A stretch of 64,000 bases of DNA, taken from assembly GCA_001784555.1 (NCBI GenBank), contig MFRM01000003.1, positions 188,615 to 252,614 on the forward strand, given 5' to 3'. Below the pieces are notes generated by a model that had not been told where the DNA came from, ran no database searches, and saw only the letters and a list, made by a program, of their open reading frames with translations. Shown here one piece after another: positions 22,409 to 35,654 of the stretch. The DNA comes from Candidatus Melainabacteria bacterium RIFCSPHIGHO2_02_FULL_34_12. Lineage in GTDB: Bacteria > Cyanobacteriota > Vampirovibrionia > 2-02-FULL-35-15. The translations under genes were made by a program, and so were the position numbers. How positions within the stretch are numbered: the first letter of the stretch is position 1; every line of letters starts with the position of its first letter.

Positions 22409-22454
22409 GAGAACGTATCGGAGTGTCGGAGTAACGGCGTATCGGCGAGAGAAC
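22409..22454 (+). repeat. Octanucleotide array (GAGAAC|GTATCGGA|GTGTCGGA|GTAACGGC|GTATCGGC|GAGAGAAC)
   Basis: Period-8 GC-rich units starting at the base after the stop codon of paralogue 3. Confidence 0.8.
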
Positions 22455-22719: not shown

Positions 22720-23331
22720 ATGACTCAAAAAAACACAATAAGTGTATTAGTACTGGTTTTTCTTATTTGCACATACCTTTATGGTACAAGCAACCTAAGT
22801 GCAAAATCAAATCAGGCAACAGTTCCAATTAATATAACAGTTCAAGGAAAGCTGGTTTTAACTGATTCAGTAAACGATAACAAATCAGGTGAAAATCCTA
22901 CCTTAAATGTTTTCTTAAAGCTTACGCCGGACATAAATAATTCAATAGTATCTGGCAATTCAGCAATAAGAATAAGATCAAATTTAAACAGCTGGAAACT
23001 TACAGCTCAAAGAAGTGATCAAAATAATTCTTTAGTAAATATTGATCCTAAAGATATCTCAATCACTTTTTCAACACAAGCAGGAGCAAATGCAGATCCA
23101 AATGCCGGAAAATTAGTTTCTCCATTTAATAAAACTGCTGACTTAAGTCAAATTTCTATTAATTCTCCCTTAGACTTAGTAATAGGAAACAGTAAAACCT
23201 CTCTTACAAGAGATTCACAGAATAAAAACAACTGGTTTCAGCTTACATCCAGTTACAGCATTTCACCGGACTTCTTTTATGAAATCGGGGAATGGGGCAC
23301 AACTGTTAGTTATAATCTCGTAAGTCCATAA
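22720..23331 (+). CDS. Secreted WxL-like fibre/surface subunit, paralogue 4
   Basis: 203 aa. Hydrophobic N-terminus. 'ATVPINITVQGKLVLT', 'AIRIRSNLNSWKLTAQRS', 'DPNAGKLVSPF', 'DFFYEIGEWGTTVSYNLVSP'. Confidence 0.7.
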   Translation: MTQKNTISVLVLVFLICTYLYGTSNLSAKSNQATVPINITVQGKLVLTDSVNDNKSGENPTLNVFLKLTPDINNSIVSGNSAIRIRSNLNSWKLTAQRSDQNNSLVNIDPKDISITFSTQAGANADPNAGKLVSPFNKTADLSQISINSPLDLVIGNSKTSLTRDSQNKNNWFQLTSSYSISPDFFYEIGEWGTTVSYNLVSP

Positions 23332-23380
23332 GAGAACGGATCGGCGAGCCGGCGATGGGGCGATTCGCCGGTTCGTTTTC
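23332..23380 (+). repeat. Octanucleotide array (GAGAAC|GGATCGGC|GAGCCGGC|GATGGGGC|GATTCGCC|GGTTCGTT)
   Basis: Starts at the base after the stop of paralogue 4. Can also fold: GAGCCGGCGA pairs with TCGCCGGTTC. Confidence 0.8.
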
Positions 23381-23405
23381 TTATGCTATATTTTACTTTG
23401 AGTAT

Positions 23406-23957: not shown

Positions 23958-24003
23958 TAGAACGTGTCGGCGAACCGGCGTATGGGCGTATCGGCGAAAG
24001 AAC
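23958..24003 (+). repeat. Octanucleotide array (TAGAAC|GTGTCGGC|GAACCGGC|GTATGGGC|GTATCGGC|GAAAGAAC)
   Basis: Starts at the base after the stop of paralogue 5. Confidence 0.8.
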
Positions 24004-24061: not shown

Positions 24062-25024
24062 ATGAATAGAAATAAAATCACAATAAGTTTTATATTTTTC
24101 ATATCTGCTTTGTTTTTATATACTCAAGGTTCTGTATTGGCCTGGACAGTATCTCCAGTCAGATATGAAATAAAAGCTGAAAGAGGGAAAGAATACACTC
24201 TTACTTTTTCAGTACTAAATGAAAGTCAGCTTTATCAAAAAAGATTTGAGATTCATACTGATGACTGGACTATAGATAAAAACAATAATTTTTTAAGAAA
24301 AGCATTTAATAAAGAAGTTAATAATAAATATTCAGCAACTTCATGGGTAAAAGTTACACCACAACAATTTGTAGTCCCTCCAGGCGAAACTAAAAATATT
24401 AGATTTACAATTAGTGTACCTGCAGACATTCCAAGTGAAGGCGAATATTCCAGTGGAATATTTGTAGGAGAAAGAAATATAGAAAAACCTCCAAAAGGAG
24501 AAAAAGTAGTACATATCAAACAAGACACTTTTATAGGTGTGGTTTTATATGTTCGAATTGGCGCAGAAAAAAGGGAAATATCCCTAAAAGATTTAATAGT
24601 TAATTCAGTACCTCTTCCAAACGGAGTAAACAAAGTTATTGTTTCTCCTGTCTATCAAAACACAGGAAATATACATTCAAGAGGACAAATACAAGTAAAG
24701 TTAGAACCTGCAGCTGAGGTAGCTCAGGATAAAGATACAAAAAAAATCGAATTTAAAGGTGGCGAAGCTGTTGTCTTAAGAGAATCTGAGCTTGCCTTTC
24801 CAGTTGAGATACCACAATTACTTCTGGCAAACACTGAGTGGCAATTTACAATAAGCACTGATTTTGGGCATGACATTCCGGTGCTTGTAGGCACAAAAAA
24901 ATATAAAGTACCCTTCATAGAAATTCCTAAAACCACAATAAAAGAAGAAAAGAAAATAAAAGAAGGTAACAAAGCAGAAGATTTGGTTAAAGAAAAACTG
25001 GAACAAAAAAAGAAAAAAAAGTAG
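24062..25024 (+). CDS. Secreted Ig-like chaperone-like / DUF916-like protein
   Basis: 320 aa. Signal peptide. 'WTVSPVRYEIKAERGKEYTLTFSVLNES' and 'SWVKVTPQQFVVPPGETKNIRFTISVPADIPSEGEYSSGIFV' resemble both PapD-type chaperone strands and DUF916 partners of WxL proteins. Lys-rich C-terminal tail, with no TM anchor. Confidence 0.6.
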   Translation: MNRNKITISFIFFISALFLYTQGSVLAWTVSPVRYEIKAERGKEYTLTFSVLNESQLYQKRFEIHTDDWTIDKNNNFLRKAFNKEVNNKYSATSWVKVTPQQFVVPPGETKNIRFTISVPADIPSEGEYSSGIFVGERNIEKPPKGEKVVHIKQDTFIGVVLYVRIGAEKREISLKDLIVNSVPLPNGVNKVIVSPVYQNTGNIHSRGQIQVKLEPAAEVAQDKDTKKIEFKGGEAVVLRESELAFPVEIPQLLLANTEWQFTISTDFGHDIPVLVGTKKYKVPFIEIPKTTIKEEKKIKEGNKAEDLVKEKLEQKKKKK

Positions 25025-34804: not shown

Positions 34805-34824
34805 CTGCTAAGGCTGGGTCTTAG
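34805..34824 (+). repeat. Direct repeat copy 2 (CTGCTAAGGCTGGGTCTTAG), overlapping the folP stop
   Basis: In the clpC frame it would read K-E-P-A-K-A-G-S-stop, against clpC K-E-T-A-K-A-G-S-stop. Confidence 0.85.
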
Positions 34825-35654
34825 TTTATCTCATGCATCCTAACTATATTCGCTCCATTTTTAATAGCTAAATCTATTATTTCTTTTGATTTTGCTTTTA
34901 TATCTGAGTCAGGGAAAAGCTTTCTAATAAAAGATTTGTGCGAGGGTCCTATTAATATCGGATAACCAAGAGATTTAAACTCACTAAGATTTTGAATTAT
35001 ATAAAAATCTTCTTCAGGTGTTTTTCCAAAACCAAGTCCAGGATCAATTATTATATTTTCTTTTTTTACGCCGTTTTTAATTGCATAATTAGTTTGTTTT
35101 TTAAGCCATGCATATATTTGTTGAATCACCTCATCTCTCTTTCGCCAGTTCGCCGATTCGCCAGTTCGCCTCACCACCGGTTCTGGCTTTGTTGCTGGTA
35201 TTCCCTCATTATGCATAATGACTATCGGACAATTATTTTTAGCTGCCACATTTACCATATCTGGATCCATAGTAAGACCTGATACATCATTAATTATTTT
35301 TGCGCCGGCATTTATGGCTAGCTGAGCAACATTTGATTTGTAGGTATCTATGGAAATTAAAATTTCCTTCGCCGGTTCGCTGTTACGCCGGCTCGCCGAT
35401 ACGTTCTTAGTAAGTTCATAAATTACCGGTATAACTCTCTTTAATTCTTCTTCTTCTGAAATCAGGACTGCACCTGGTCTTGTAGATTCACCGCCAATAT
35501 CAATAATATCTACTCCGGATTTAATTAATTCATCTGCATGTTTAATTGCATCTTCTATATTTAAATATTTGCCGCCGTCAGAAAATGAATCTGGCGTAAC
35601 ATTTAAGATGCTCATAAATAGTAGTTTTGATTTTGTTATTGTCATGATTTCCAA
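34821..35654 (-). CDS. folP: Dihydropteroate synthase
   Basis: 277 aa. 'ILNVTPDSFSDGGKY', 'IIDIGGESTRPGA', 'ISIDTYK', 'IINDVSG', 'IIIDPGLGFGKT'. Carries two repeat-derived in-frame insertions. Confidence 0.9.
   Translation of the reverse strand: MEIMTITKSKLLFMSILNVTPDSFSDGGKYLNIEDAIKHADELIKSGVDIIDIGGESTRPGAVLISEEEELKRVIPVIYELTKNVSASRRNSEPAKEILISIDTYKSNVAQLAINAGAKIINDVSGLTMDPDMVNVAAKNNCPIVIMHNEGIPATKPEPVVRRTGESANWRKRDEVIQQIYAWLKKQTNYAIKNGVKKENIIIDPGLGFGKTPEEDFYIIQNLSEFKSLGYPILIGPSHKSFIRKLFPDSDIKAKSKEIIDLAIKNGANIVRMHEIN
35141..35183 (-). repeat. Octanucleotide array inside folP (minus strand GAACCGGT|GGTGAGGC|GAACTGGC|GAATCGGC|GAACTGGC|GAA)
   Basis: Encodes about 'VVRRTGESANWRK' in the loop after 'MHNEG'. 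E. coli FolP, as I recall it, is shorter here. Confidence 0.75.
35367..35409 (-). repeat. Octanucleotide array inside folP (minus strand AAGAAC|GTATCGGC|GAGCCGGC|GTAACAGC|GAACCGGC|GAAG)
   Basis: Encodes 'KNVSASRRNSEPAKE' between 'RVIPVI' and 'ISIDT'. Shares AGAACG.ATCGGCGAGCCGGCG with the array at 23332..23380. Confidence 0.8.

Follow-up and report, generated by a model that had tools for sequence, protein, structure and literature searches.

Two arrays of GC-rich octanucleotides (octamers) lie in frame within folP, the dihydropteroate synthase (DHPS) gene of Candidatus Melainabacteria bacterium RIFCSPHIGHO2_02_FULL_34_12. The whole stretch of DNA that was analysed, henceforth the window, comprises 64,000 nucleotides (contig MFRM01000003.1, positions 188,615 to 252,614) and has a GC content of only around 34%, so that the GC-rich arrays are sharply conspicuous. 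Our reading, to which we assign a probability of about 0.6, is that a dispersed and non-palindromic repeat family, specific to this lineage, gave rise to the folP inserts, and that selection would confine its copies to permissive loops.

The octamer arrays of folP and the family they belong to

The folP gene (34821..35645, minus strand) is an intact open reading frame (ORF) of 274 codons plus a stop. As the earlier note on this DNA had described, two octamer arrays are contained in it in frame. The first, read on the minus strand with its flanks (35362-35408), is AAGAAC-G-TATCGGCG-AGCCGGCG-TAACAGCG-AACCGGCG-AAGGAA. Its core (35370..35402) is made up of a G (35402) and four octamers (35370-35401), together 33 nucleotides or 11 codons that encode VSASRRNSEPA. 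The preceding AAGAAC (35403..35408) fits the 5' consensus of the family described below (AAAGAAC-G), and the sequence that follows (35362..35369), AAGGAAAT, is a degenerate version of the 3' consensus AAAGAACA. The second array, on the same strand and with its flanks (35135-35186), reads CCAG-AACCGGTG-GTGAGGCG-AACTGGCG-AATCGGCG-AACTGGCG-AAAGAGAG. Its core (35143..35182) of five octamers encodes (E)PVVRRTGESANWR, and its 3' end (35127..35142) consists of AAAGAGAG and a degenerate unit, ATGAGGTG, the register having been compared with that in the related lineages L108 and L193. The translation of the ORF includes TKNVSASRRNSEPAKE (array 1) and KPEPVVRRTGESANWRKR (array 2), and the peptides that span the arrays are VSASRRNSEPAK and EPVVRRTGESANWR. 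Both arrays were detected by Tandem Repeats Finder, with periods of 8 and 16, and a degenerate two-unit pattern had two matches in the window, where 0.01 were expected.

The exact FolP protein occurs on 14 contigs, and folP is identical at the DNA level in the six that were fetched from as many assemblies, which rules out an assembly artefact as the source of the arrays. These six contigs are 100% identical across the whole locus, chimeric contig ends excepted; the differences in contig L103 are confined to the contig ends and do not mark a diverged strain. The six contigs thus represent one clone and carry little information on the stability of the arrays.

To make an inventory of the family, the genome that contains the window (G000; 2.11 Mb in 26 contigs, 34% GC) was searched for at least three consecutive octamers with a GGCG core, one mismatch being allowed. 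In this way, 75 arrays with units of the form NNNNGGCG were obtained; a shuffled genome gave none. The units have the profile [A/T/G][A/T/G]N[C/G]GGCG, in which four of the eight positions vary freely, and 40 or more types can be distinguished among the 339 units, the commonest being AACCGGCG (56), TATCGGCG (48), AGCCGGCG (20) and AATCGGCG (19). Adjacent units were identical in 24 of 264 pairs, with 15.9 expected. The flanks of the 75 arrays are conserved as well, with the consensus AAAGAAC-G on the 5' side (C at -2 in 72%, G at -1 in 77%) and AAAGAACA on the 3' side (A at +1 in 93%). A module can be described as a purine-rich octamer ending in CG (AAAGAACG), usually four NNNNGGCG octamers, and then AAAGAACA. 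The folP arrays and the intergenic arrays of the window have units and ends in common, which bears out the earlier proposal that they belong to one family; the string that array 1 was said to share with the intergenic array at 23332 is present in both (AGAACGgATCGGCGAGCCGGCG and AGAACGtATCGGCGAGCCGGCG, respectively).

Four units were found in 45 of the 75 arrays, and the mode is the same deep inside genes (21 of 33 arrays) and elsewhere (24 of 42), so that array size is a property of the element and not the outcome of frame selection. The earlier note had regarded the period of eight as an unusual frameshift liability for an essential gene. This view did not hold: the units are heterogeneous, their number is mostly four, and both the core with its leading G (33 nucleotides) and the full module of six octamers in one register (48 nucleotides) are multiples of three, which removes most of the supposed liability. 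In a radical-SAM gene (G000 C19:116364-116443) two modules are even read through head to tail in frame. Variants in unit number were absent among the near-identical copies that were compared (the six folP assemblies and cluster variants of around 25 host proteins), a near-clonal set with little power. A pattern of four cores matched 41 times in G000, four times in one sister genus and not at all or a few times in the other 399 genomes of the class, those few being mostly true microsatellites. Judged by these matches, the octamer family is essentially confined to this lineage and a number of its uncultured relatives.

FolP and its two variable loops

FolP is a genuine DHPS. The protein is assigned to PF00809 (Pterin_bind) by a family record on the exact sequence, matches 44 solved DHPS chains (the top one being 1tws of B. 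anthracis, E 6e-55), and keeps 34 of the 34 invariant columns in an alignment of 94 sequences, among which D49, G51, E53-S54-T55, D100, N119, H145, D201, G203, K208, R269 and H271. The sole large gaps in the alignments to 1tws and 6pz2 measure 11 residues (SASRRNSEPAK) and 15 residues (IPATKPEPVVRRTGE / GIPATKPEPVVRRTG) and are located at the arrays, in keeping with the earlier estimate that both host loops exceed those of E. coli FolP by around 7-14 residues; the match to the E. coli enzyme itself (1aj0) covers 264 query residues and 243 chain residues. An AlphaFold2 model built with 94 relatives (mean pLDDT 88.9) shows eight strand/helix repeats. In the model, insert 1 prolongs helix 64-87 and then runs as a coil (88-95) up to strand 96-100, and insert 2 forms the coil 145-167 between strand 141-144 and helix 168-190, with a pLDDT of 60-64 for the block. 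Alignments and model together support the view that both arrays represent in-frame surface-loop insertions, as the comparison with orthologs and a DHPS structure proposed in the earlier note was meant to establish. Judged by the conservation of the frame, the inserts are probably translated passengers, for which a benefit to FolP need not be assumed.

Within the same family, FolP proteins are 62-71% identical to that of the window, with gene lengths of 732-819 nucleotides, and a wider search of genome contigs recovered relatives of at most 49% identity. Among 86 family FolPs the segments between conserved anchors have a standard deviation (SD) in length of 0, except for the two loops and one small indel region near the C-terminus (SD 1.17); the N-terminus is also variable in length in the family alignment. 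Loop 1 ranges from 11 to 46 residues (mode 15) and loop 2 from 22 to 58. Some relatives have short loops that are free of repeats (e.g. YELKKRFPDI and PDKSNAGIIQEV). In others, the DNA of the loops contains GTAG-headed palindromes (e.g. TGTAGGGGCGGGTCGGCGACCCGCCC in L087), a purine-rich array of ARAGAAGC octamers (AGAGAAGC four times in L083) or other small repeats, and a second palindrome family is visible at the peptide level only, in sequences like RHCEERSDEAIS. Arrays of the GGCG octamer family occupy FolP loops in five more lineages (loop 1 in L107 and L194, loop 2 in L193 and L195, both loops in L108), where they use other units and other reading frames. In the nearest FolP (P0005, 82% identical over the masked columns), loop 1 contains an octamer array at another position and loop 2 a GTAG palindrome. 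A FolP tree that was built without the loops, and is weakly supported, requires five or more changes of the octamer state in each loop.

In loop 2, the arrays of four lineages (the window, L108, L193 and L195) have one and the same starting nucleotide, following ACNAARCCNG. The array of the window is 15 nucleotides longer than that of L108, which equals two octamers minus one base, and the frame is thereby kept. The earlier note had named orthologs without the repeat family, but with equivalent loop lengths and sequences, as the finding that would speak against insertion. The lengths indeed are often equal, but the loops hold unrelated sequences that derive from other repeat families. The best reading of these sequence comparisons is that the FolP loops are permissive sites, which would have been filled repeatedly by whichever repeat family a lineage carries.

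Two further observations concern the same loops. In the FolP gene of L195 (L195:144-974) a GC-rich palindrome, GGCCGCCTTTGGCGAGCCTCGCCTCTGGCGGGC, is nested within the octamer array of loop 2, a repeat inside a repeat in a coding loop. Secondly, one copy of another purine-rich octamer family, with the unit ARAGAARC, occupies FolP loop 1 in the relative G004. Arrays of this second family in G000 (C5:171485-171574, C21:25881-25961, C7:44445-44476, C22:36231-36262 and C15:18614-18637) often come as inverted pairs that would form long hairpins, and the ARAGAARC pattern matched 13 times in G000, eight times in G008, four times in G004, three times in G006 and not in the four searched genomes from other families of the class.

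Placement of the arrays and differences between strains

On basis of ORF-based, crude gene calls (1859 genes, 90.5% coding), the 75 arrays of G000 comprise 41 intragenic arrays in sense and seven in antisense orientation, eight that overlap a gene end in sense and 19 that are intergenic. The scan for other coding hosts that the earlier note had suggested recovered 33 arrays deep inside genes, and the module occurs in around 28 unrelated genes as well as in intergenic DNA. Pfam-confirmed hosts include DnaX, phosphoglucomutase, glycerol kinase (GlpK), HemC, a PurC-PurS fusion, KdsB, RecJ, acetyl-CoA synthetase, QueA and an arginase-family enzyme; in GlpK, most of the 30 residues that are inserted with respect to the solved structure 6k78 come from a seven-unit array. 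Four octamer hosts, QueA (C21:44940 region), a PabB-like protein (C24:28987 region), a CoA-transferase (C26:104379 region) and an MnmA-like protein (C3:79819-81018), also carry a different, palindromic repeat in frame, which yields peptides such as VIARSTEGATEQS...ALLPRNDV, VIASPIRGEAIPS...GLPRNDI and IARRHEVPTKQS...STPRSD.

The intergenic arrays follow a rule of their own, as 13 of the 19 begin 4-10 nucleotides past the stop codon of a co-oriented upstream gene, and the 5' end octamer often includes that stop codon (TAAGAGAACG, TAGAACG, TGAGAACG). All three intergenic arrays of the window, each on the plus strand, comply with it. The first (22416..22447) has four units and starts 8 nucleotides past the stop of an upstream pilin-like gene (TAAGAGAACG...AGAGAACA). 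The second (23327..23385) follows a second pilin-like gene and combines an array (units 23339-23370) with an inverted partial copy, to form a 22-bp hairpin that is followed by UUUUCUU; its predicted stability of -38.4 kcal/mol (z -6.55) was reached by none of 200 shuffles, and the structure has the look of an intrinsic terminator made from copies of the family, in a Rho-less genome. The third (23965..23996), again of four units and 8 nucleotides past a stop, continues in AAAGAACA and a purine-rich leader to the ATG of the next gene at 24062.

The orientation of the arrays tracks the gene strand and not the local GC skew. A replication-strand bias was rejected as the cause, given that the G-rich strand holds 12 genic arrays and the opposite strand 10, yet 19 of these 22 are in sense. 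Avoidance of stop codons was rejected likewise, as the antisense frames are the more open ones (2.63 of 3, versus 2.21). The same holds for the avoidance of Rho sites, because no Rho RNA-binding domain was found in G000 or 12 relatives. Transcription termination in this bacterial family presumably depends on hairpins, of which the repeats provide examples. Two properties could be related to the bias. All three sense frames of the arrays encode hydrophilic peptides composed of R, G, E, A, S, T, P, K and N (KNEPAYRRAGESAKE and the like), whereas the antisense frames include F, L, V and C. Furthermore, the sense strand of genes has 3.3-4.5 times as many words that resemble the module ends as the antisense strand does (AAAGAAC, 665 versus 193). 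This excess is close to the observed ratio of 41:7, and the bias can therefore be explained by a site preference, by selection on the peptide or by both.

Near-identical database variants of around 25 host proteins showed the arrays to be unchanged with few exceptions, and those exceptions concern presence as well as sequence. In the comparison with an aconitase-family relative (97.5% identity over 869 residues) there is one indel, and it corresponds to the 10 residues of the array. The array is also missing from a CoA-transferase relative at 90.7% identity, with a sole indel of 6 residues, and is retained in a relative at 97.1%. In the linker of the PurC-PurS fusion (G000 C21:17983-18014; L197), the close relative P0197 has the palindromic SSVIARSRHASLAVNSATKQS (VIARS..ATKQS) instead of the octamer array.

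Differences in sequence were found at three genes. For HemC (G000 C21; L196:2551-3546), a contig from another assembly differs at 6 of 6546 nucleotides, all within the array. The changes affect unit positions 4 and 7 in three successive units, where both cytosines of CGGCG are replaced by G or A, so that AACCGGCG TATCGGCG TATCGGCG has become AACGGGGG TATGGGAG TATGGGAG. Gene conversion from another array was rejected as the source, as the genome contains no donor sequence; the variant could stem from a mutation or editing event of a periodic kind, or else from a sequencing error that is specific to this sequence. A contig from a second assembly that covers PurC-PurS shows 23 differences in 4022 alignment columns, 22 of which fall within around 100 nucleotides that abut or enter the array on its 5' side. 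In a phosphoglucomutase variant, all four substitutions are located at most 14 residues past the array. The clustering of strain differences at the arrays is consistent across three genes; for the two contigs, sequence-specific error or chimeric assembly is possible.

Origin and spread of the modules

The dispersal of the family may be pictured as follows. New copies would be written into purine-rich stretches (resembling Lys, Glu, Asn and Arg codons) that look like the module ends, through a copy-in from a resident module, e.g. by template switching or short-patch conversion, that leaves no target-site duplication. A signal of such duplication was indeed lacking, as the 5' and 3' flanks show no copy-specific co-variation (maximum z around 2 over 48 settings). 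Since purine-rich stretches are three to four and a half times commoner on the sense strand, the copies would end up in sense orientation, the sizes of 33 and 48 nucleotides would let the reading frame survive the insertion, and purifying selection would retain only the copies in flexible surface loops and linkers. The copying step is the most tentative part of this scheme, and we consider template switching or short-patch conversion a possible route that is more probably wrong than right.

Several observations weigh against the dispersal of copies as outlined here. No enzyme or donor mechanism was identified. Retro-insertion and end-joining filler were rejected because the assembled genome lacks a reverse transcriptase (RVT_1) and Ku, respectively, the latter being undetected in the whole genomes of G000 and 12 relatives. 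Mobilisation by RAYT proteins was rejected as well: the two RAYT-like genes (G000 C3:79232-79831 and C12:3892-4398) associate with GTAG palindromes and have no octamer array within 1-1.7 kb. The purine-rich ends could simply be parts of the element that reflect no target preference, in which case the sense bias needs another cause, e.g. peptide selection. The array-free sites (P0157, P0180) are known at the protein level only, where insertion and replacement are not told apart, and the case for translation of the inserts comes from the conserved frame. Finally, the common start of the four loop-2 arrays may point to common descent with turnover, and the FolP tree leaves 42 of its 91 inner branches open. 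Apart from these points, a classical transposon or MITE (miniature inverted-repeat transposable element) was rejected, considering the direct rather than inverted module ends and the lack of a target-site duplication signal. Within the coding sequence of the RAYT-like Y1 transposase at C3:79232-79831, which lies around 109 kb ahead of the window, there is a perfect and in-frame GTAG palindrome, GTAGGGGCGGGGTTACCCCGCCCCTAC.

A bolder version of the copy-in scheme, which we offer as a rather doubtful speculation, holds that the arrays mark an ongoing and locally mutagenic process of copy-in and repair. DNA synthesis or repair would stall or switch template at the GC-rich modules, which would be copied from another locus into purine-rich sites on the sense strand, with short tracts of clustered substitutions being left next to or within the module; short conversion patches would then start from the homology that the mobile modules offer, and other species of the community are a possible source of these patches.

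The arrays could instead be functional nucleic-acid elements of gene 3' ends (bound by a protein, of the G-quadruplex (G4) type, or acting as terminator or stabiliser), with the coding copies being tolerated or used for mRNA control. The strict sense placement directly past stop codons and the preference for four units would fit such a role, as would the strong hairpins followed by U-runs that result from inverted pairs. A precedent is provided by the G-rich heptamer arrays of the STRR type (GGGNATC / GGGGA(C/T)T) in Xanthomonas and Nostoc, which prefer four units, a number that the authors link to G4, and lie in sense at most 50 bp from the stop codons of general-metabolism genes (Rehm et al. 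2015; PMC4692102). About a third of them are intragenic in Nostoc, they are under-represented on the coding strand, and inverted pairs can form stem-loops (PMC4692102). The octamer family resembles these arrays in the four units, the sense placement near stops, the association with general metabolism and the stem-loops from inverted pairs, but differs from them in the 8-nucleotide unit, the constant GGCG with four variable positions and the conserved purine-rich ends, and half of its copies lie in frame inside genes. In contrast to the G4-forming heptamers, the octamers lack four G-tracts of at least three G; their G-runs are two long and interleaved with C, hence the low G4 potential. In fact, a G4 was rejected on the sequence-based G4Hunter score, with a mean of 0.52, only 3 of the 75 arrays reaching 1.2, and values of 0.12 and 0.45 for the folP arrays. 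For direct arrays, no RNA structure beyond that of shuffled sequences was predicted (z +0.9 to -1.5), hairpins being formed only by an array paired with an inverted array. Given furthermore that the units vary freely at half of their positions, that the family is missing from most sister genera and that copies come and go between relatives of 90.7-97.5% identity, we consider a function of this kind unlikely.

Equally unlikely in our view is that the arrays spread and change mainly through gene conversion that overwrites the sequence of a few ancient permissive sites, and less through new insertions, the folP arrays being old residents of which the content is replaced from time to time. The common start of the loop-2 arrays agrees with this explanation, as do the different repeat families that the same sites carry in close relatives and the concentration of strain differences at the arrays or their edges (6 of 6 for HemC, 22 of 23 for PurC-PurS). 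It is contradicted by the relatives with short repeat-free loops, by the array-free sites in proteins of 90.7-97.5% identity and by the HemC variant, which has no donor in the genome.

Ordinary long-unit microsatellites that slip in place are a much less probable source. The tandem period of eight and runs of identical units (TATCGGCG three times, AGACGGCG three times) would be expected of them, as would the slight excess of identical neighbors, and local unit duplication does occur, as illustrated by the three copies of AGACGGCG in L107 and L194. Against this stand the 75 loci with a common core, both end octamers and a modal unit number, the units that mostly differ within an array, and the lack of unit-number variants among the near-clonal copies; the true identical-unit microsatellites of the class moreover look different, e.g. 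GGCGTGGG in N copies. Mrazek and co-workers reportedly described in 2007 the long simple sequence repeats of prokaryotes, with units of 5-11 nucleotides. These are alike in being tandem, in having units that are no multiple of three and in being genic only where the frame is kept, but the octamer family differs in its heterogeneous units, its fixed unit number and the ends common to 75 loci, which together argue for the dispersal of modules and not for slippage in place. Selection of the inserts for what they do to FolP itself, such as for altered drug or substrate handling, is hardly credible: short DHPS insertions alter sulfonamide sensitivity in some pathogens and insert 2 follows strand 5 on the catalytic face, but the module is shared with many unrelated genes and intergenic DNA, the loops of relatives carry unrelated sequences of many lengths, and the inserts have the lowest confidence of the model.

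Dispersed copies of a repeat family in coding sequences are best compared with the known repeats that are found in frame. Intragenic REPs of the GTAG/CGTC type occur in frame, and their ends can supply stop codons (Di Nocera et al. 2013; PMC3733652). Like these and the Rickettsia palindromic elements (RPEs), the octamer modules are located in frame at tolerant surface positions of conserved, functional genes and have intergenic copies downstream of ORFs, with ends that in some cases provide the stop codon. The RPEs, said to have been found inserted in frame in genes by Ogata and co-workers in 2000, are palindromes of around 100-150 bp, whereas the octamer modules are direct arrays of 33-48 nucleotides. 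The difference with the REPs, which are palindromic hairpins linked to RAYTs, is that the octamer arrays are direct, unstructured and devoid of a RAYT link, while a RAYT-like gene of G000 does carry a GTAG palindrome. Elhai and co-workers reportedly described, in 2008, the small dispersed repeats of heterocystous cyanobacteria, which have units of 21-27 nucleotides and a conserved secondary structure. These share with the octamer modules a size below 50 nucleotides, the absence of target-site duplications, the restriction to a narrow clade, and the nesting in other repeats and in tandem short-unit arrays, but the octamer modules differ in their internal period of eight, the lack of structure and the strong coding-sense bias.

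The octamer family extends the in-frame passenger repeats from palindromes (RPE, REP) to direct arrays, in non-photosynthetic relatives of the cyanobacteria. It illustrates that a repeat with a unit that is no multiple of three can persist in essential genes, as it is the whole module and not the unit that is frame-neutral. The FolP family in addition provides a natural map of the tolerance of a TIM-barrel to insertions, with two loops that vary across 86 lineages and almost nothing elsewhere. If the clustering of strain differences at the arrays is real, the modules would be hot spots of sequence change in core genes, and should the scheme of mutagenic copy-in and repair be true, permissive loops like those of FolP, the PurC-PurS linker and GlpK, among others, would be rewritten repeatedly by the repeat family that happens to be active and constitute a standing generator of protein loops instead of rare accidents. 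A real clustering would bear on the origin of protein loops and linkers, and on the way in which metagenome-assembled genomes of such organisms are compared and annotated.

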